Virus record (IMG/VR): IMGVR_UViG_3300022552_000002
Span: 1 to 64,000 of that record
Reading direction: 5' to 3' (one strand)
DNA length: 64,000 nucleotides
Source: a virus
Under the pieces are notes generated by a model. That model ran no database searches. It was not told where the DNA came from and was given only the letters and a program-made list of their open reading frames with translations. Shown here in pieces: positions 1,943 to 48,800 of the stretch. The first letter of the stretch is position 1, and every line of letters starts with the position of its first letter. A program made the position numbers and the translations under genes.

Positions 1943-2238
1943 GTTGTTTGCCTTTCTAATAGATGCGAAAGCCTGTCTCTTCTGACAGCGAGATCTTCTT
2001 TATCTTTTCTCCATCTCATTTGTATGTCGTCTATTAATCTATTTTGTAGACTTTTGTTTCTTTTGAAGTTATTTGACCATGGCCAACACATACCGAATTC
2101 AGGATATTTATCTTCGAATTCTCTAGCACATGTATTACATCCATGTTCAAGATAAGATCCTTTAGTTCCATATCCAAACATTGGACTATGATCGCCTTGA
2201 TTAATGCTACCTTTGCATCTTGAATTATTGCATGGCAT
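1939..2238 (-). CDS. hypothetical Cys-containing protein
   Basis: TAATG coupling to helicase stop. Confidence 0.65.
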   Translation of the reverse strand: MPCNNSRCKGSINQGDHSPMFGYGTKGSYLEHGCNTCAREFEDKYPEFGMCWPWSNNFKRNKSLQNRLIDDIQMRWRKDKEDLAVRRDRLSHLLERQTT

Positions 2239-4919
2239 TATGCGGTCTCCTTATCAAACATTGAGTTAAGAACATCACCAGAAATATCACCTACGTCAGC
2301 GGCAGAACCATCAACAATTTTATTAATGATCTTCATTTTGTGAGCAATGATTGCAGCCATCTTCCCATCAATGCTATTTTCCATATCAAGATATTCGATC
2401 ATTACATTGTTCCTCTGATTTATTCTCCAGAGTCGGTCTTCCATTTGCACCATATCAGCTGGACGCCAAGTACGTTCAACTACCTTCATGTTCTGACAAA
2501 CTTGAAGTCCATCTGTTCCTGTTCCAGCTGCCATGATGGAAGCTAAGAAAACACGAGCTTCTTTTGCTACGAATTTATCAATAGCATCTTGTCTTTTAGA
2601 TGAGTTATCACCACCTCTGATAGTAACAATAGAGTGTCCAGCTTTCTTAATAGATTCTTCTAGTCTATTAACCACATCTTTGTGATGTGCAAAGATAGTT
2701 AATTGTTCGTCTTCATTGCTTTCGAACCAATCATTGAAATATTCAATAAGAGAATTGATTTTAGAAAGAGCACAAAGGCGCTTCAATGTAGTAAGTTTGG
2801 TGATAGCTTCAGCTGCTTGTGCTTTGTTAAGTTTTTCTATACCACCTTCTTCAAATGCCCACTTAAAGAAATCTTTAACTGCCAAATCATATTCTGCTCT
2901 ATCTTCTTTCTTAATATCGAGCGTAGTTCTGAAAACTAGTTTTTCGGGTAGATCTTTAAGTACATCTTTCTTTTTACGACGAATCATATATTGACCAACC
3001 ACTCTACGATGTAGTTCATCAAGATTAGACGCACCATCGAACTTTTTGATAGTAATGAAAGTATCTTTGACTCGATTATAGATCTGTTTCTCTTCTGGAT
3101 TACAATATTTGTAACCGAATGTAGTAAACTTTGGCCACTTCTGAGGGTCACAGATATGAAGTTGGTGCCAAAGCTCTCTTGGTCTGTTAAGAACTGGAGT
3201 ACCAGTCATGAGAATTCTTCTAGGAATATTCTTGGCAATTTCTCGAGCTGCAATTGAACGACCTGATTTAGATTCTTTAACGTAATGAGATTCATCTAAA
3301 ATCATAGTACGAAAACCATAGTATCTGAAGAAGTTTTTATGACGCTTTAGCAGATCGTAGTTTGTAATAACAATATCTGGTTGATAAGTAGAAAGTTTTT
3401 CGATACTGTGTTTTGTCTTTTCTTTATTGCCGTTCTTATTAATTTTGTAGAAAAAGCCACCTTCAATTACTACGCAGTTAATGTCGTTATTAATCCATTC
3501 TATAATTTTCCTACCCCAATTAAGTTTAACATTAGCTGGACAAACAATGAGACTTGGTTGTCTTCTGTAATCACGATCAATAAAAGCTAGTGCTTGAACA
3601 GTTTTACCACAGTTATGTACAATAATTCCATTAGCAATAAAATTTCTATATGGATCTTCCATTACAATATCATAGACTCTTCTCTCACCAATATTTCTGA
3701 TACTAACTACTCTATCTTCTTTTGGAAGGAATGTAATTTTACCACCAGTACCGGCGGTTCCACCATGCATATTAAGATGTTTATTGTGCAAAATATGATG
3801 TTCAGAACAAGAAGTTAGTTGAAGATTTTCTATTCTATTATCATGTCTTATCTCATTTTTATGGTGAATTTGTTCTGGCCATTCAATATATCTTCCAAGA
3901 TGTTTTTCCATTACAAGTATGTGTTCAAAAACAATACCATTATTGAATTCTCTTGGATGATCAAAATTACCAGAGACACGAATGTATCCGTCCTTATCGA
4001 TAAATTTTCCACCTTTGAATGTTGGTTTCTTTCTCAGATACCTATAAATACATTGTTTACAATATCCTCTATACTTTGAATATTTATACGTTGTTATATT
4101 TTCTGTACCACTACATCTTTTGCAAACAATTTTTCCATTAACAAGAATTTTCTTATTCAATGAGTTTGCTGCTTCAATTTCTTTACCATTCTTTTTAAAC
4201 AATTCATGGTCAGGAGTGAGTCTTAATTTTTTTCTAGATTTAGTTGTGATTTCGATTACATGTTTTTTACCTTGATAGATAACTTTTTTAATTCTATTGA
4301 GTGTGAGTTCGTTATCGGTGAGAGATTTAGTGTAAGTTGGAATATCTGTGTTCCATCTGCCTTCGATTCCATTAAACTTTTTATACAAATCCCTTAGTTT
4401 TATTTTAGAAGCTTTACCAGCTCTGTTAATAGCAATGATTGCATTACCACTAATACAACCCATATCGTCACCAATAATAATGCCACCATTGATAGCAATT
4501 TTCAGTTCAAGGAAGCGCACACCAGCGCTTTGGAACGGATAAAGCGCACCACCATGAATACTGATTTCATCTTCCTCAGAGACAGTAGTGGCTGTAGAAA
4601 ACTTATTCTGCTTCTTAACTCGGTTGACTAGATTAAGAATGGTCTCGTCAAATTCTGCTGTTGGATAATGTTCAATCACAACACCAATAGCTGCCTCGAC
4701 GAAATCATTCTTAACCCACCAACAACGTTTTTTCTTATCCCACCCTTTGTTCCATCCAAATACAGCTGCTTTCAAACTGTCATTAAACGCACCATTGTAC
4801 TTTGGTGTGTAGATATCAATTCCTTCATTAGTTGCTTTGACTTTCGTAACTGACACTTTTGGCGTGGGTTGTTTTCTAACAACACTTCTTTCTGGAATTA
4901 TCATTTCAATTTGCTTCAA
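2238..4919 (-). CDS. SNF2/SMARCAL1(HARP)-like helicase interrupted by an intein
   Basis: LYPFQ Q-motif, DDMG/CGKT Walker A after splicing, IVCPA, DESH, MTGTP, QMEDRLWRINQ motif VI; N-terminal HARP-like segment. Confidence 0.9.
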   Translation of the reverse strand: MKQIEMIIPERSVVRKQPTPKVSVTKVKATNEGIDIYTPKYNGAFNDSLKAAVFGWNKGWDKKKRCWWVKNDFVEAAIGVVIEHYPTAEFDETILNLVNRVKKQNKFSTATTVSEEDEISIHGGALYPFQSAGVRFLELKIAINGGIIIGDDMGCISGNAIIAINRAGKASKIKLRDLYKKFNGIEGRWNTDIPTYTKSLTDNELTLNRIKKVIYQGKKHVIEITTKSRKKLRLTPDHELFKKNGKEIEAANSLNKKILVNGKIVCKRCSGTENITTYKYSKYRGYCKQCIYRYLRKKPTFKGGKFIDKDGYIRVSGNFDHPREFNNGIVFEHILVMEKHLGRYIEWPEQIHHKNEIRHDNRIENLQLTSCSEHHILHNKHLNMHGGTAGTGGKITFLPKEDRVVSIRNIGERRVYDIVMEDPYRNFIANGIIVHNCGKTVQALAFIDRDYRRQPSLIVCPANVKLNWGRKIIEWINNDINCVVIEGGFFYKINKNGNKEKTKHSIEKLSTYQPDIVITNYDLLKRHKNFFRYYGFRTMILDESHYVKESKSGRSIAAREIAKNIPRRILMTGTPVLNRPRELWHQLHICDPQKWPKFTTFGYKYCNPEEKQIYNRVKDTFITIKKFDGASNLDELHRRVVGQYMIRRKKKDVLKDLPEKLVFRTTLDIKKEDRAEYDLAVKDFFKWAFEEGGIEKLNKAQAAEAITKLTTLKRLCALSKINSLIEYFNDWFESNEDEQLTIFAHHKDVVNRLEESIKKAGHSIVTIRGGDNSSKRQDAIDKFVAKEARVFLASIMAAGTGTDGLQVCQNMKVVERTWRPADMVQMEDRLWRINQRNNVMIEYLDMENSIDGKMAAIIAHKMKIINKIVDGSAADVGDISGDVLNSMFDKETA
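3612..4457 (-). mobile_element. intein (282 aa) carrying an HNH homing endonuclease
   Basis: starts CISGNA, block B LTPDH, ends VYDI...NFIANGIIVHN followed by Cys+1; internal EHILVMEKHLGR...HHKNEIRHDNRIENL. Confidence 0.92.
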
Positions 4920-4928
4920 TTTTGTTTC

Positions 4929-5381
4929 CTAAGCAGACTTTGCAACAATCTCATTGTAAACTTCAAGCTCCAACTCTTCAGAAAGAAGCTTCGCATTGAG
5001 ACGAACAACCTCGGTCTTCGGGAGCTTACTAATCACTTCCCTCTTCATGCGATTCACAAGAGACTCCATCTCATCAAACGACATTCCGATCATTTCCGCA
5101 ATGTCGTCTTGACCCATCACCATTGAAACCTTGATGGCTTCCTCCATAGCAAACAAGATGTTCTCTCTCTGAATGCCGCTCTTGTGGAGAGCAATTGCTA
5201 GACACTTCAACCATGGAATAGAGGTAGTTGAAGCCTTCTCGCTTGTCTTCTTGTTGAGCTTACCAAAAATACGAACAATCATGTCAATATTGTACTCTCC
5301 ATCAGAGATGTCGTTCTTTGCTTCCTTCTCTTCCTTGCTGGAGATGGCCTTTGACAGAGCGAGAGTGTTGATTGAGTTCAT
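4929..5381 (-). CDS. hypothetical protein, paralog of 33489..34013
   Basis: shared LAL.K, D.IVR..G.L.K and T.SIPWL...A.....SG motifs; GGAGG RBS. Confidence 0.8.
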   Translation of the reverse strand: MNSINTLALSKAISSKEEKEAKNDISDGEYNIDMIVRIFGKLNKKTSEKASTTSIPWLKCLAIALHKSGIQRENILFAMEEAIKVSMVMGQDDIAEMIGMSFDEMESLVNRMKREVISKLPKTEVVRLNAKLLSEELELEVYNEIVAKSA

Positions 5382-5518
5382 CTTTTCCTCCGATTTTTGT
5401 TGGCTTTTGGATTACAATAAATATGCATAAAGTTTTGCATATAACATGGGTATTGTCAATCGTTGAATATACATATAATAATGTCTAATGTTTATCAACA
5501 GTTGATTGAAAACTACAG

Positions 5519-15340: not shown

Positions 15341-16399
15341 TTCAACTCCCAATCGTTAACTACAATCCAAGCGTTGTTTTTATTCAACTTCTTTTGCCGC
15401 AATTCCTTGTTAGTCAACTTTCTACGAAAACCACAAGAAATTCCATCTAAATCAAAAAGCTGAAACACCTTGGATTTTCCCACTCTAAAAGGTGTTTCCA
15501 TTGTTCGATAGATTCCGTTGTTTAATTCAAGTGTCATCTTTCAGTCTCCGATTCTATACGCAAAGTAACTCCAATTTCTTTCAACAAATCTTTTCCTGTT
15601 AAGAATTCATCTGCGTCTATATCAAAAACAATGATTGGATCTATAAATGAATGACCACAATTAACTTTTTCAGAACCAAAAACATTCATAGCAGCATAAG
15701 CCGCTGAGAGTGTAGCTGGTTCAACTCTAGCTCTAATGATCTTTTTCAGTTTGATAGTCATTAGTTGTCCTTTTTATTCCCTATTCCTTCTTCAATAATA
15801 TTCACAATAACATTTGCAATCTTTTTATCACTCTCTACACAATTAAAAACAACACCTACATGTTTCATTTCGCCAATGAAAGTAGTAACAGTAACGTTGG
15901 TTTGATAGTTGTTCCTTCTATCAAAAAACCCTATATCTATTCTGTGACAGATCTCAAAGATACGAATAGAATATCTTACTTCCAAACCATTATGTAGATA
16001 AACTTTTTGATATCCATGCTCTCTAAGTAGACCAATAACATTACCAATGATAGTGTTAAATCTACGTCTGTTGAACAATTGGAATTTCATCTAACCTTCT
16101 CTTTCAATTGTGCAATAGTGAGTAACAGAAAGAACATCACCCACAATATTGAAAGTAATCTCTCCCTCTACTCTCAGGTAGTCCGTATCAGCGTCTTTAT
16201 TGTAATCCAGGATATAATGAGTAGAAGTTTCCTGTTCTTCGATTGAGCCCCATTCTATGAAGTTATGGAGTCCTATCGCAGCACAACATTCTGCAACATT
16301 CTCTGTATGATGCATTTCAGTAGAAATAGGCTTTCCACTTCGTATGTCAAGAATCATAGGAAATGTCAGTTTATGAAACATCGTTTTCCTTTTTAGCCA

Positions 16400-16487
16400 G
16401 TATGCATCATCTTATGCATACTCCGTTTTATTTCCCTGGCTACACTACGTGTAGCAAGTCAGAAATTATGCATCATCTTATGCATAA
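16400..16487. promoter_or_regulatory. two tandem TTATGCATAA-type box pairs flanking the palindrome GCTACAC-TAC-GTGTAGC
   Basis: pairs at 16400-16421 and 16466-16487, each two 10-mers with a 2-bp spacer; palindrome at 16439-16455. Confidence 0.7.
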
Positions 16488-17107
16488 CGATTTCATCAAT
16501 GTTTTTCAGTCTTTGTTTCTCAATTAGAATCATAAGCTGTATTATGACTCTAATAAAGCTACAGAGAACTATTCCCACTCAAATTTAACAGAGGAGAAAT
16601 TGGACAGAGTGATTCTTTCCAGCTCTCCATTATCATCGTAGAAGGTAGCGATCGTTCTAGTACCCATTCTATCTTTCTCTTCTTGAACGATATTCAACAA
16701 TTCATTCTGTGTATCAGCTTCAAGAATGAATTCATCAGAAGTACCAGAATCAAAGATAGCTTTCACAATCTTCTCCTTAGTAAACAACGTTACCGTTGAC
16801 ACTAACACCACAACGCATATCACGATCCATTCTATCGAACATATCGTTATTCTCTTCCTTGATTACAGAGGCTTCAGTAATAGCCTCTTTCTCTGTACCC
16901 AGGAAATGGAACATGCGGATAAACTGAGAGCCATATGAAAGCTCCCGTCTATATCCGTTGTACCAGACTTCTATCACTTGCTTCATATTAACTGTTCCTA
17001 GTGTCTGTTATCTGTTCTGTTCTATGTTGTTCAATTAATAACTTACTTTGTTCGATATATTCGCGTATTACAAATCTAATGTAGTGTGCGATAGAATATT
17101 CAAATAC

Positions 17108-17172
17108 AAGTAAACTAACTATTCCCAGGTACACTGTAATAAAAGTAAACTAACTATTCCCAGGTACACTGT
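17108..17172. repeat. 30-bp perfect direct repeat, 35-bp period
   Basis: AAGTAAACTAACTATTCCCAGGTACACTGT at 17108 and 17143. Confidence 0.95.
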
Positions 17173-17996
17173 CTATAGTGAATGGGGGGCTGTATACCTG
17201 CTTTCTACCCACGATAAAGCCCCTTCAAAGGATCTTAGGGTTTATCTACCATATGATCAGATCCAGTCCCCCTTCATAGCAAATTCCATAGCATCGAATT
17301 CCTTGATCTTCTTTATCCGCTTTTTCCTAGGATTCTTTTGTGGCTTTGGTTCACAGATCTCAGAAGGATACTGTGATTCATTTAACGCGATGAATCGAGC
17401 CGCACTATCAGAGGTAAGAAATTCTTCCTTACCATAAGACTTCATAACCAGATATCCGTGATTCGTTTCCTCTACTGTACCCTGTCGCATTTCATCCCTG
17501 ATAACTGCATTATCACCGTTATGCATATTATGTTGCATAACATCGGGACACAAACGAGAGAAATCTTTTGAAGCTGTCATAGTTTTACCCTACTCTCAAG
17601 GAAACTGTACCAATACCTGTATTACAGGTAACAGTCTTAGGTTCTGATATGGCTTCCGCTTTCATACGAATTCTGGCTCCAGCCATCTTCATACAGTTAT
17701 TCAAAACAAATGTAGGATTTTCCTCGTTTTGATATTCCATATTATCGTGCAATTTAATATCGTGTTCTTTTGCAAAGGACATAAGCAGATCGATTATCTC
17801 GAACATACAGTCAGTTGAATAGACAATATTTTTTATTTCTACGATAAGAGAATTAGTTTTCATATTCTGTGGTTTGTATATAGGGGAATTCTCTACAGCC
17901 ATTATCTGTTGAATATGAGAATGCAAATAGTCGTCAAAGTCAAAATCTGGGGATTTTCCAGATTGCTTTAGCTCTTTATCTGTCTTATGTCCGATC

Positions 17997-18018
17997 TTAT
18001 GCATAATATTATGCATAA
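17997..18018. promoter_or_regulatory. tandem palindrome box TTATGCATAA-TA-TTATGCATAA
   Basis: perfect copy of the recurrent motif. Confidence 0.75.
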
Positions 18019-18067
18019 CCTTTCTATCCCTGGTCAAAACAGGGAAAACAAAGCCTCTATAATAGGG

Positions 18068-18103
18068 AAAACCCCCCGGACCACAAAAGATCCGGGGGGT
18101 TTT
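18068..18103. terminator. bidirectional intrinsic terminator
   Basis: AAAACCCCCCGGA-N10-TCCGGGGGGTTTT just downstream of 18126..18500. Confidence 0.85.
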
Positions 18104-18125
18104 GAGAGGTAGGGCTAGCTAGATT

Positions 18126-18500
18126 CTAGTCGCTGGGGACGGTCGCGACCGTTTGCGATCCGCGCTTTCCCTCACTCTTCGCGGCAACCTCAGTCTCCCA
18201 GCGATCATGATCGATCATCGGGACGGCCGTAGCGGCGACGTGCGAAGCGAAAGCCTCAACTAGCTGGCGCGCCTTGTCGCTGTACTCACCCACGGTTAGG
18301 CCATTGTTCTTTGCGAACGTGCGAAGCTTGGAGAGATCGGACTCGATCTTCCGCGCTAGGGTATCGAGAGGGCAGACCACAAAGGAGCCAGATGCGTCCG
18401 CGTAAGGAACGATCATGGAAAGGGGAGGTAGATCAGCCTTTGCCTTAGGCGCGATCTCCTCGATCATGGTGGAAAGGCTAGAAAGCTTGATTTTCTTCAT
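18126..18500 (-). CDS. first left-arm gene, hypothetical 124 aa, GC-rich, probably monocistronic
   Basis: MKKIKLSSLS...; GAGG RBS; bounded by a sigma54-like promoter and a terminator. Confidence 0.75.
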   Translation of the reverse strand: MKKIKLSSLSTMIEEIAPKAKADLPPLSMIVPYADASGSFVVCPLDTLARKIESDLSKLRTFAKNNGLTVGEYSDKARQLVEAFASHVAATAVPMIDHDRWETEVAAKSEGKRGSQTVATVPSD

Positions 18501-18578
18501 CGTAAAAACCTCAATCTCAGGTTTGATTTTTTCTATTGCTTGAATCCCTGAGAAAACCCACGCAACACCGCTATTGAT

Positions 18579-18594
18579 TGCAACTAATGCGCCA
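18579..18594 (-). promoter_or_regulatory. sigma54 (-24/-12) promoter-like site
   Basis: TGGCGC-ATTAG-TTGCA vs consensus TGGCAC-N5-TTGCW; about 80 bp upstream of ATG 18500. Confidence 0.7.
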
Positions 18595-18706
18595 AAAGTT
18601 AACTTATTGTTATCATTAGGTTTGACATAGTGACAGAGCCCCAAAACTGGCTTATATAAACCAATAGTGATAACTCTAAGCATCACCATACATTTAAACC
18701 TAATGA

Positions 18707-18719
18707 AATCAACATGTTG
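18707..18719 (+). promoter_or_regulatory. IHF consensus site
   Basis: AATCAA-CATG-TTG matches WATCAA-N4-TTR; a one-mismatch site also at 18600-18612 (-). Confidence 0.45.
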
Positions 18720-18829
18720 AATCCCTCAGAAAACTGAGAGTCTAACCTCAGAAAACTGTTACATAACTTATCATGACAAAATGGCAATACTATGGTAATA
18801 GAGCCATAGTATAGGGTACAGATACCACG

Positions 18830-18851
18830 TTATGCATAATCTTATGCATAA
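18830..18851. promoter_or_regulatory. tandem palindrome box TTATGCATAA-TC-TTATGCATAA
   Basis: perfect copy; overlaps the -12 element of the sigma54-like site at 18845. Confidence 0.75.
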
Positions 18852-19009
18852 GACGTACCAGAACAAATGTTATGCAATGATTATACCAATGAATACAACG
18901 AAAACATATGCAATAAACAAGCCAATTAGTTAAGGGGATTCCTTAGCAAGAAATAGGCCAAGTTTTATGGGGGGTAGGGCGTTGAAAAACACATGCAATG
19001 TTTATACCA
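18845..19009 (-). promoter_or_regulatory. array of five sigma54 promoter-like sites
   Basis: TGGTACGTCTTATGCA (18845), TGGTATAATCATTGCA (18873), TGGCTTGTTTATTGCA (18909), TGGCCTATTTCTTGCT (18945), TGGTATAAACATTGCA (18994); all GG-N10-GC. Confidence 0.7.
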
Positions 19010-19075
19010 TAAAAAATAATGGACGGATGTTACTGTTGGCACGATAATTGTTAATCCAGGTGCCCACCCAAATCG

Positions 19076-19158
19076 CCCCCAATTTTTAAAATTCCCCCAA
19101 TTTTTAAAATTCCCCCAATTTTTAAAATTCCCCCAATTTTTAAAATTCCCCCAATTTT
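19076..19158. repeat. 18-bp tandem repeat, 4 perfect + 1 partial
   Basis: CCCCCAATTTTTAAAATT units at 19076, 19094, 19112, 19130; partial at 19148. Confidence 0.95.
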
Positions 19159-19323
19159 CAACATCCGTAATTTCCTCATCTTTAATTCCTCTATTTTCCT
19201 ACTAAACATCTCCAACAATATCCACGAGTTTTGAATATATCCATTGTTATGCATAAGCCTTCTAAAAAATTCCGCCCATAATTTTCAACTATCCAGTATT
19301 TTCTTTGTTATTTTTTTGGCCCC

Positions 19324-19335
19324 TTGTAGTATATA
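19324..19335 (+). promoter_or_regulatory. phage promoter motif TTGTAGTATATA
   Basis: recurs upstream of genes at 30460, 35303, 38891 (+) and 48228-48239 (-). Confidence 0.65.
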
Positions 19336-19358
19336 TAATATACAGAAAGGCATGTAAT

Positions 19359-19898
19359 ATGTGGTCTGAACTAAAAACAGTTAGATATAATTCTCCTGAA
19401 GAAATAGCTAACTTCTGGTGTAGACCTGATGAAGAAGGTAAGGTAGATGGTTTTTTAAAAAGAGTAACTGTTCCTGAGTTTATTCAAGAAATATATGTAA
19501 ATGGTATTTGGGGATTTTTTCACATAGAAACAGGAGAAATACATTATTGGTGTTCAAATGAAACCTCGTTAGGAAGTGCTATACGATTTTTTGGTCATGA
19601 ACTCGGACATCTTTTAGGTATTCAAGATGGCACATATTACGAGAATGAGTTTGAAGCAGAGAAGTTTGCTAATGCTGCATATTTTGCTGCAAAACTAGCA
19701 TATGAAGCTGTTGATGTTTTGAGTTGCAAACGACTTGGAGCATCAATAAAAACCAAAACAAAAAAACCAGTTATCTTATTTGCTGCTATTGAAGAAGAAC
19801 AAGATGATAGAATAGTCAAGATGAGTATAGAAGAAGGTAAAACTTCTGGTGAAATTATTCGAGAAGCTATTAAATTATATTTGTCTAGGAAGAAATAA
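19359..19898 (+). CDS. HExxH metallopeptidase (ImmA/IrrE-like) fused to a C-terminal ribbon-helix-helix domain
   Basis: FFGHELGH...EFEAEKFA; C-term ILFAAIEEEQDDRIVKMSIEEGKTSGEIIREAIKLYL; AAAGG RBS before ATG 19359. Confidence 0.6.
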   Translation: MWSELKTVRYNSPEEIANFWCRPDEEGKVDGFLKRVTVPEFIQEIYVNGIWGFFHIETGEIHYWCSNETSLGSAIRFFGHELGHLLGIQDGTYYENEFEAEKFANAAYFAAKLAYEAVDVLSCKRLGASIKTKTKKPVILFAAIEEEQDDRIVKMSIEEGKTSGEIIREAIKLYLSRKK

Positions 19899-19968
19899 TT
19901 TATACTTTTATTCCAACAATACTCACGAATACCTACAAATACTCACAGTTTTTCACAGGAATCACAGG

Positions 19969-19990
19969 TTATGCATAAGCTTATGCATAA
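19969..19990. promoter_or_regulatory. tandem palindrome box TTATGCATAA-GC-TTATGCATAA
   Basis: perfect copy. Confidence 0.75.
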
Positions 19991-20126
19991 AAAGTTCCTA
20001 CAATTTCCACTTTTATCCACAGAATCTAAGGTAATTTTCTGTACTCACTATTCCGACTCCCCAAAAAATTCCACCCATATTTTTGAAATCTCAGCTTTTT
20101 CTGTATGAACAGAGTATATATAGATT

Positions 20127-20276
20127 GGGCGAGACAACGGCTTAACTTAACTAGCCTTGAGATTTGCTGTTGTCTGCCCTGGGTAGCACGGTGGCTGAAA
20201 TTTTTTGTGGACTCCAACAATGGTGCCCTCCATTAGAGTTCAACAATTTATGGAAGCGTGCCACACCGTGCTACCC
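20127..20276 (+). ncRNA. putative two-domain structured RNA / 5' leader
   Basis: stem 1 GGGC-G-AGACAACGGC/GCTGTTGTCT-GCCC; stem 2 closed by perfect 13-bp GGGTAGCACGGTG/CACCGTGCTACCC; starts 3 nt after GTATATATAG. Confidence 0.55.
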
Positions 20277-42278: not shown

Positions 42279-42563
42279 ATGTCTAAAACAGAACAGACAG
42301 CAATTCGTATTTCTGAAGAATTGATAGCACGTATTGATCGTTATATAGAAAATAAACAAAAGGAAATACCATATAAAAAACTAACTCGTTCCGATGCAAT
42401 TCGGATGTTGTTACATCAAGAATTGGAATTAAAAGAAAAAGATTATGTTTTGGAGTTAATTTCATCAAATGAAGAAGCGCTATCAGAACAACTAAATAAA
42501 AAAGCAGAAGAATTGGCAACTGAAAGTCCCAACGAACCCGTGATCGTGCCACCGAATAAATAA
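42279..42563 (+). CDS. CopG/RHH-type DNA-binding protein
   Basis: TAIRISEELIARIDRY...TRSDAIRMLL; start uncertain. Confidence 0.7.
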   Translation: MSKTEQTAIRISEELIARIDRYIENKQKEIPYKKLTRSDAIRMLLHQELELKEKDYVLELISSNEEALSEQLNKKAEELATESPNEPVIVPPNK

Positions 42564-48296: not shown

Positions 48297-48800
48297 ATGT
48301 TCAAGAAACGACGCAACGCATTTCGCAAAAGACGAGCCGTTTATCTTCTAGTTGCATGTCAACTTGATGAGAAGACCGTTGCACGAGAATTAAGCGTCAA
48401 AGAGAGCACTGTTCGTAAGTGGATGAAACAACCTGACTTTGCTGCCGAACTTGAGAAGGCTATGCAAAGGATAGAAGGCATTGATGCAAAGTGGCGTGCA
48501 AAACAGAATAAAATTCTATCTGGCAGGTTATATGAAGAGGCACACAATAGAATAGCGAACACTCGTGAATTAAGAGATATTCCATTGACTACATTAATCA
48601 GCAAGATAAGAGAAGTGAACAATGAAATCAGAGTTGATACTCCTGGTGATGCTACATCTCGAGGCGAAATGACACACAAGCATGAGCTACAAGATGCTCT
48701 GCTTGAACGATACAAGGAAGCACAGAAGCAACAACCGCGTCTCAGTTTGGTTGAAATGCCATCTGGAGATGAACCAAAGAAAGAGGGTACAAATGAGTGA
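48297..48800 (+). CDS. terS: probable terminase small subunit (HTH)
   Basis: VARELSVKESTVRKWMKQPDF HTH; lies upstream of TerL. Confidence 0.6.
   Translation: MFKKRRNAFRKRRAVYLLVACQLDEKTVARELSVKESTVRKWMKQPDFAAELEKAMQRIEGIDAKWRAKQNKILSGRLYEEAHNRIANTRELRDIPLTTLISKIREVNNEIRVDTPGDATSRGEMTHKHELQDALLERYKEAQKQQPRLSLVEMPSGDEPKKEGTNE

Follow-up and report, generated by a model that had tools for sequence, protein, structure and literature searches.

The virus record IMGVR_UViG_3300022552_000002 is 109,973 bp long with a GC content of 38%, and its first 64,000 nucleotides (64 kb) form the stretch described here, referred to as the window and numbered from its first letter. Leftward genes start at about 18.7 kb and rightward ones at 19.36 kb, with a strand switch between them, and beyond the window a rightward replication operon (helicase, DnaC-like, DnaB-like) begins at 103.45 kb. 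The element under study is a 10-bp palindrome, TTATGCATAA (hereafter, the box), which recurs around these control regions, mostly as tandem pairs (22-mers). The sites, the promoter-like elements that overlap them and the genes for two candidate regulators are as follows:

5421..5442, degenerate pair ATATGCATAA-AG-TTTTGCATAT with 1+2 mismatches
16400..16421, degenerate pair GTATGCATCA-TC-TTATGCATAC with 2+1 mismatches
16466..16487, near-perfect pair TTATGCATCA-TC-TTATGCATAA, in the same 187-bp gap as the 16400 pair and 66 bp from it
17519..17540, degenerate pair with 1+2 mismatches, in the first 60 nt of the minus-strand gene 17257-17580 (in-frame MQHNMHN)
17997..18018, perfect pair, at the 5' end of the minus-strand gene 17585-18016/18037 (MHNIMHK)
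18008..18037, minus strand, sigma70-like site TTGACC-18-CATAAT matching 10/12 consensus positions, with its -10 element (18008-18013) inside the 17997 pair
18830..18851, perfect pair, in the gap at the strand switch, 141 nt ahead of the minus-strand gene 18126-18689
18845..18860, minus strand, proximal sigma54-like site TGGTACGTCTTATGCA, whose -12 element is box 2 of the 18830 pair
19247..19256, perfect single box, with no second box 12 bp to either side
19359..19898, plus strand, gp19359, 179 aa, first gene of the rightward arm, candidate regulator
19969..19990, perfect pair, with the gene 19359 stop codon 70 nt before it and gene 20297 starting about 300 nt after it
42279..42563, plus strand, gp42279, 94 aa, N-terminal KTEQTAIRISEELIARID, candidate regulator
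103025, perfect single box, beyond the window
103111, fourth perfect pair, beyond the window
103237, weak pair, beyond the window

The box is the most over-represented 10-mer of the record, with 11 perfect copies against 0.113 expected from a third-order Markov model. Within the window there are 15 boxes with no more than one mismatch (shuffle mean 3.75, sd 1.87, maximum 10; 100 shuffles), and seven matches to the tandem 22-mer at up to three mismatches, starting at 5421, 16400, 16466, 17519, 17997, 18830 and 19969, where shuffles give an expectation of 0.00. Over the whole record, with three mismatches allowed in total, nine pairs have the 12-bp spacing and no pair has one of 10, 11 or 13–17 bp, in agreement with the 12-bp period and variable 2-bp spacer given in a preliminary description of this stretch. 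The coordinates of that description all hold, including the perfect pairs at 17997, 18830 and 19969, the lone perfect box that starts at 19247, and the peptides MHNIMHK and MQHNMHN, read in frame where pairs lie inside open reading frames (ORFs). It had also listed one-mismatch single boxes at 5421, 6122 and 48162, near or over gene starts. The first of these is actually a degenerate pair, and the other two belong to a set of seven one-mismatch boxes outside pairs (6122, 48162, 56038 and four beyond the window), where about six are expected by chance (window shuffles scaled to 110 kb). Such singles are at chance level and are not to be counted as sites.

The nine pairs and two perfect singles give 11 sites. 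Nine are non-coding, although non-coding DNA makes up 10.9% of the record (binomial P = 9.5e-8; coding mask from the report author's greedy ORF call, with 17 small, overlapping or doubtful ORFs dropped), and the remaining two fall in the first 60 nt of genes. The sites are confined to 5.4–20 kb and 103.0–103.3 kb, and the structural genes are free of them. They are positioned at the strand switch, at the starts of leftward early genes and ahead of the replication operon at 103 kb, where those at 103025, 103111 and 103237 share the preceding gap of 778 bp. CheckV completeness of the record is 76%, and proteins identical to gp19359 and gp42279 are also encoded on a separate contig of 149,110 bp. 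The complete phage genome is probably about 149 kb in size, and because some 39 kb of it is probably missing from the record, all box counts are lower bounds.

The unit of the motif is a 10-bp palindrome with a 6-bp core. The ATGCAT core is intact in 15 of the 18 boxes that make up the nine pairs, with TTGCAT in two and ATACAA in one; variation among the pairs is found in the TT/AA flanks and at the inner positions, and the 2-bp spacer is free. As the perfect singles at 19247 and 103025 occupy the same control regions as pairs, a lone 10-bp box is already a unit. A core of 6 bp appears too short for the two recognition helices of a helix-turn-helix (HTH) dimer and would suit a reader of a single major groove, such as the beta-ribbon of a ribbon-helix-helix (RHH) protein. 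A different stoichiometry, with one dimer per pair reading TATGCA-N8-TGCATA, is conceivable, but it leaves unexplained why each half is a perfect palindrome.

Other accounts of the motif were tried and rejected. Restriction-site avoidance or enrichment at ATGCAT does not apply, as the 50 copies present are near a hand estimate of about 37 from base composition. A tyrosine-recombinase core site was ruled out because the central NN differs among sites, a sigma70 promoter formed within a pair because the hexamers would be spaced 10 bp apart, a leaderless start from the pair's own CATAAT because just 3 nt separate it from the ATG, and an intrinsic terminator because the pairs have no trailing U-run. 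In a full-text search of the literature for TTATGCATAA, the titles among the matches listed suggest primers or eukaryotic sequences, and no bacterial operator.

Several sites lie close to gene starts and promoter-like elements. The 5421 pair stands 40 nt ahead of the start of gene 4929-5381 (minus strand), and on that strand a perfect TTGACA precedes the pair by 11 bp; the 16400 pair is 19 nt upstream of the start of the minus-strand gene 16091-16381. The sigma70-like site that overlaps the 17997 pair stands just downstream of a strong hairpin terminator (18067-18100) at the end of gene 18126-18689. The 18830 pair is downstream of, or overlaps, all five intergenic sigma54-like sites and covers -12/+1 of the proximal one; its overlap with the -12 element of TGGTACGTCTTATGCA (18845-18860, minus strand), which had been noticed in the preliminary description, is confirmed. 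This is the position of a gate or roadblock, and not that of an enhancer. On the rightward side, box 19247 is 79 bp upstream of a promoter-like motif, GTAGTATATA (19326), and 103 nt upstream of gene 19359, and the 19969 pair is flanked by DnaA-box-like 9-mers at 19949 and 20013.

The interpretation favored here, with moderate confidence, is that the boxes are double-stranded DNA operators for a sequence-specific protein of two-fold symmetry, most likely phage-encoded, that would place two dimers on each pair. Each 10-bp palindrome with its ATGCAT core would take one dimer, and boxes 12 bp apart, about one helical turn, would take a cooperatively bound dimer of dimers, as do RHH repressors of the Arc/Mnt or MetJ type; an RHH tetramer would be the leading model. 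The sites would form a small regulon comprising the heads of early units on both sides of the strand switch and the replication-helicase operon. Bound over a core promoter (-10 at 18008-18013; -12/+1 at 18845-18860) or in the stretch that separates a promoter from its start codon (5421, 16400), the protein would prevent initiation or serve as a roadblock, and early transcription would be turned off once the regulator accumulates. It is a matter of speculation that the same protein might repress leftward units and spare, or even help, rightward ones. Operators of a phage regulator had already been suggested in the preliminary description; the palindrome, the 12-bp period, the position at operon heads, two promoter overlaps and two RHH candidates argue for them, whereas protein binding, repression and the identity of the binder are what we infer from sequence.

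Arc/Mnt (phage P22) and MetJ with its met-boxes are RHH repressors in which a beta-ribbon dimer reads one major groove and a dimer of dimers binds cooperatively. The phage resembles them in its short, symmetric, adjacent boxes, some of them over promoter-like elements, and in encoding small putative RHH proteins, one of which (gp42279) has an Arc-like Q-x-A-x-R ribbon. It differs in a period of 12 bp (Arc about 11, MetJ 8), in boxes that are each a perfect 10-bp palindrome, and in having some ten sites over several operons rather than one operator, with binding postulated. The operators of P1 C1 and the 'stoperators' of mycobacteriophage L5 gp71 are asymmetric 13–17-mers bound by the HTH repressors of temperate phages. 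Here too a short motif stands at the heads of many units, and also inside genes, as would be expected if one regulator served many operons; unlike in those systems, the boxes of this phage are palindromic and in tandem, and its 159 ORFs showed no integrase or other sign of lysogeny in Pfam and PHROG scans. Overall, the proposed control device is of a kind well known from phages, in a phage that is itself unfamiliar. The box regulon offers a first handle on the gene-expression programme of an uncultured marine siphovirus lineage in which almost every early gene lacks a known family. The boxes flag the transcription units of early and replication genes, and the two small candidate proteins, together with a 22-bp probe, could be assayed in vitro without the identity of the host.

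Two proteins are candidates for the reader of the boxes. In gp19359, an N-terminal HExxH (HELGH) domain is fused to a C-terminal RHH_1 domain; the RHH_1 match (25.8 bits, Pfam cut-off 20.5) makes it the sole candidate to pass a curated DNA-binding threshold. One homologue, of 67% identity and near length, was found among 5.8 billion proteins, and it retains SLGSAIRFFGHELGH (HELGH) and the strand KPVI(L/V)FAAIE. The Atlas gave weak pointers to SprT or ImmA/IrrE metalloproteases, which are leads only. The protein recalls ImmA/IrrE-repressor pairs, but with the two parts fused and with RHH instead of HTH. Its AlphaFold2 model was unusable (predicted local distance difference test, pLDDT, 42.7), and just one single box, that at 103 nt upstream, is near its gene.

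The second candidate, gp42279, begins KTEQTAIRISEEL, and its residues T4, Q6, A8 and R10 lie on one face in the manner of the Arc ribbon (Q-N-R). Its one homologue, P0004, retains TEQTAIR. Modelling two copies of residues 1-55 together gave a predicted homodimer with a score of 0.63 (best of three controls, 0.00), at least 96% agreement of contacts between runs, a partner pLDDT of at least 82, and contacts 8:8' and 10:6' of an antiparallel ribbon. The mark that it passes was reached by 20/30 proteins solved as one-chain pairs and by 1/23 solved as single chains, and the pass may reflect mere likeness to solved RHH dimers. Sequence searches of the PDB were empty. Because of its polar ribbon and predicted antiparallel homodimer, as against an all-hydrophobic strand in gp19359, gp42279 appears to be the better candidate for the DNA reader, with gp19359 as the alternative.

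A number of points weigh against a phage-encoded repressor. The predicted RHH strand of gp19359 (PVILFAAI) has no polar side chain to read bases, and the RHH assignment of gp42279 is sub-threshold in every one of three libraries (RHH_1 0.039; phrog_4738 'transcriptional repressor' 6.8e-4; NCBIfam aCcr1 6.4e-4). The monomer model of gp42279 (pLDDT 80.8) is all-helical with no PDB match at E <= 0.001, and gene 42279 has no box nearby and thus shows no sign of autoregulation. Sigma70-type sites in the region do not exceed the number in shuffles (9 vs 14.4), and the promoter overlaps are positional and suggestive only. The rightward sites 19247 and 19969 are at least 80–150 bp upstream of promoter-like motifs, which is no position for a repressor. 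Both changes of the outermost bases of a pair are complementary (G..C in the 16400 pair, A..T in the 5421 pair), which a hairpin explains better than a protein site. Finally, the exact 22-mer is found in 80 unrelated loci (53 metagenome and 27 genome stretches), and a host factor could therefore read it.

That the boxes are host transcription-factor sites, borrowed by the phage and linking its early transcription to host physiology, is considered unlikely, but their half-sites do resemble those of two bacterial regulators. The AphA box of Vibrio is ATATGCA-N6-TGCATAT (PMC3440409). Its half-site core TATGCA, from a quorum regulator, is identical in the phage and has the same outward orientation, and site 5421 even carries the full ATATGCA-N8-TGCATAT. 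The phage spacer is 8 bp against 6 bp, and AphA is a host protein of the PadR family; a PadR domain was not found in the phage. The ARG box (ArgR/AhrC) is an 18-bp palindrome, TGNAT-N4-ATNCA, usually present as two boxes 20–21 bp apart, with AWTGCATRWWYATGCAWT as the Streptomyces form (PMC5291005). The phage half-site TATGCATAA fits TNTGNATWW, and TATGCAT(AA) matches the ArgR half-site written as TNTGCATWW; the center is 6 bp (TGCAT-N6-ATGCA) instead of 4 bp, there is no second box 20–21 bp away, and outer half-sites are absent. Eleven perfect copies would also be unusual for borrowed host sites. The phage itself occurs letter-identical in marine, sediment and hydrothermal-vent metagenome assemblies, as would suit a host-factor site; the sediment-run and vent-run contigs are identical over their covered parts, leaving no variation to compare, and no RNA dataset was listed among the sequencing runs that contain it. 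If a host factor were the binder, a virulent-looking phage would be reading host physiology at its early promoters.

The loci that carry the 22-mer elsewhere point in several directions. Among 95 loci with it, none encodes a homologue of any phage ORF, and several of these outside loci are clearly functional in their own settings. Two of them (L063, L080) have arrays of at least three boxes at a 12-bp period in DNA of 56–65% GC. In another (L114), the 22-mer is just upstream of the ribosome-binding site of an operon for DUF4160 and a CopG-BrnA-like RHH antitoxin; by analogy, this parallel may be taken as supportive of an RHH reader in the phage. Among 127 adjacent ORFs scanned were arginine deiminase (L078), argG with an argC-like gene (L129), argG (L130) and four SBP_bac_3 amino-acid binding proteins (L084, L105, L106, L115), so that the exact 22-mer adjoins arginine genes in some Clostridia, in favor of a host factor. 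On the other side, most of the 80 loci have unrelated neighbors (SecG, NusA, pantoate ligase and others), and argG is preceded by N4 ARG-like boxes, read by eye, in 4/5 Clostridia genomes (exact in L164 and L166, with an imperfect second half-site in L167 and L168) and by the 12-bp pair in none there. In L130/L166 some 280 bp separate the pair from argG downstream, and the pair precedes a terminator-like hairpin. One Clostridia genome (G009; L113, L119, L120, L127, L135-L146) has 21 copies of the pair (up to three mismatches) inside a longer shared repeat, laid out as ...ccagtggtcggga[pair]aggtaccattgatgg..., which is probably a dispersed mobile element or one resembling repetitive extragenic palindromes.

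A role for the pairs as hairpins, either in RNA at the 5' ends of early transcripts or in single-stranded DNA, with a stem NTATGCA/TGCATAN' read by a processing enzyme, a translational repressor or a replication protein, is likewise improbable. All pairs do fold, with a stem of 7–9 bp, a loop of 4–8 nt and -5.9 to -11.6 kcal/mol as RNA, the variable positions fall in the loop, and several pairs contain or adjoin start codons; the complementary outermost changes noted above belong here as well. Yet the perfect singles at 19247 and 103025, in the same control regions, form no stable hairpin. The sequence of the stem is kept, and not its pairing alone, with no G-U or compensatory change inside it; no pair precedes a U-run on the transcribed strand, and an element so symmetric gives no strand signal.

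A more elaborate scheme, for which the likelihood is low, would combine parts of these ideas: a host regulator of the AphA/PadR or ArgR type, or a phage mimic with a spacing 2 bp wider, might act with the unidirectional sigma54-like array, gated by one pair, so that the early switch would respond to cell density, arginine/nitrogen status or a similar signal from the host, and gp19359 might be a protease-coupled, self-inactivating component.

It is very unlikely that the boxes are sites of an origin or of partition, bound by an initiator or a centromere-binding protein, instead of transcriptional operators. The minimum of cumulative GC skew is at the strand-switch gap, but divergent transcription explains this equally well. 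The gap also contains a tandem repeat of 18 bp (4.6 copies) and three (19516, 19949, 20013) of the nine DnaA-box-like 9-mers of the record (pattern TTWTNCACA; four matches with a reversed-pattern control), and each box is one mismatch, at position 8, from the DnaA-box consensus TTATNCACA. A cluster of TTATNCACA 9-mers at one locus was not found, nor was a ParA-type ATPase among the phage ORFs, and the sites are spread over 15 kb and again at 103 kb, each at the head of an operon, unlike iterons.

The last possibility, raised in the preliminary description, was that the pairs, read as TGCA-N8-TGCA, serve as enhancers through which an activator would switch on the sigma54-like promoters of the strand switch. 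In its favor are a cluster of such sites, one with box 2 of the 18830 pair as its -12 element, and a single box (19247) about 240–390 bp upstream of the array. It is nevertheless highly improbable and largely refuted by position: for 8/9 pairs the 300 bp downstream contain no sigma54-like site, and the ninth, at the array, covers -12/+1 instead of standing 80–150 bp upstream. The GC...GC spacing in a pair is 12 bp against 11 bp between -24/-12 elements, and Pfam scans of the 159 phage ORFs revealed neither Sigma54_activat nor an AAA+ enhancer-binding domain.

The sigma54-like sites deserve description apart from the boxes. Six of them (TGG-N9-TTGCA type) lie at 18579-19009, all leftward within 430 bp, and five of the six are in the gap upstream of gene 18126-18689. 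With a generally known consensus used for the scan, the whole record has 37 such sites (15.0 +/- 3.9 in shuffles). The TTGCAT part of these sites resembles half a box, and three read as a box with an extra A (ATGCAAT). Between the array and box 19247 there is a perfect tandem repeat of the 18-bp unit CCCCCAATTTTTAAAATT (4.6 copies, 19076-19158), which is like an iteron or an upstream activating sequence, and at which assemblies break (contig ends). A second recurrent motif, GTAGTATATA, is found at 19326, 30461, 35305, 38893, 48228(-) and 103437 (L033 1437), 17–93 nt upstream of gene starts and ahead of at least six genes; it looks like a promoter, or -10 class, of the phage's own. The copy at 103437 ends 7 nt before an ATG, where a leaderless start may be possible.

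The exact 22-mer has no match in IMG/VR, and its 18-mer core is present in 17 viral loci, with one site each, none related to the phage; a DUF3310 ORF was the sole weak tblastn match from these loci. Scans of viral contigs seeded with gp19359, gp42279 and P0004 found no relative, and the only homologues of the candidate regulators are P0002, on a contig of 1,428 bp, and P0004, on a contig of 53,299 bp. Terminase relatives (G001-G005) show no enrichment of the motif; one of them (G001, terminase 90% identical) spans only 43.9–69.8 kb of the phage map. In two complete distant relatives (G002, G003), both motif enrichment and the two RHH genes are absent, which is consistent with a lineage-specific module and does not separate gp42279 from gp19359. 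Neither RHH gene was found in G004, G005 and G010-G012, most of which are fragments. One of the complete relatives (G003, L044; terminase 54% identical, 57% GC) has a 10-bp palindrome of its own, TAGGTACCTA, at 48528, 49733 and 49829 (three copies vs 0.03 expected), all in the syntenic gap before the replication-helicase operon; this is the same layout with a different word.

Pfam and PHROG scans of the 159 ORFs indicate a siphovirus-like tailed phage, with a Mu-type portal, an E-type capsid protein, a tail tube and a tape-measure protein of 3,752 aa, along with nucleotide-metabolism genes and two intein-bearing helicases; the majority of early genes match no known family. The scans of these ORFs detected no RNA polymerase, sigma factor, integrase, ParA or sigma54 activator, and an Rfam scan gave nothing besides two tRNAs. 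Nothing close is present among GenBank phages, with no DNA match to the control region and no protein match to gp19359. The tape-measure gene is at 71141-82399 of the record (L031 7141-18399), and a protein of that length implies an exceptionally long tail. A SNF2-type helicase (2238-4919, minus strand) carries an intein with an HNH endonuclease, and a DEAD/ResIII helicase (103687-106182, plus strand; L033 1687-4182) has a Hint domain with a LAGLIDADG homing endonuclease.

Other features of the early region were seen near the boxes. A 35-bp direct repeat, in two copies 97% identical, is found at 17103-17172 in the 270-bp gap before gene 16777-16986, and it contains CCWGG-type words that are present also beside the 16400 and 17997 pairs. 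Within gene 18126-18689, the C-terminal two thirds (18126-18500) is far richer in GC than the remaining early region (45% in the 18–19 kb bin vs about 36%), and the gene, which belongs to no known family, may be a chimera or a recent acquisition. Two rightward control modules resemble duplicates of each other, with the common blocks AAAAAATTCCRCCCATA... and TCCAACAATAYYCACGA (19264-19293 and 20063-20092; 19211-19227 and 19912-19928), and each module has a box or a pair between its blocks. Gene 20297 is preceded by a highly structured 5' leader or noncoding RNA (20127-20276, plus strand) with two long stems and no Rfam match, the predicted fold of which (-68.7 kcal/mol, z = -5.3) was equalled in stability by 0/200 shuffles.

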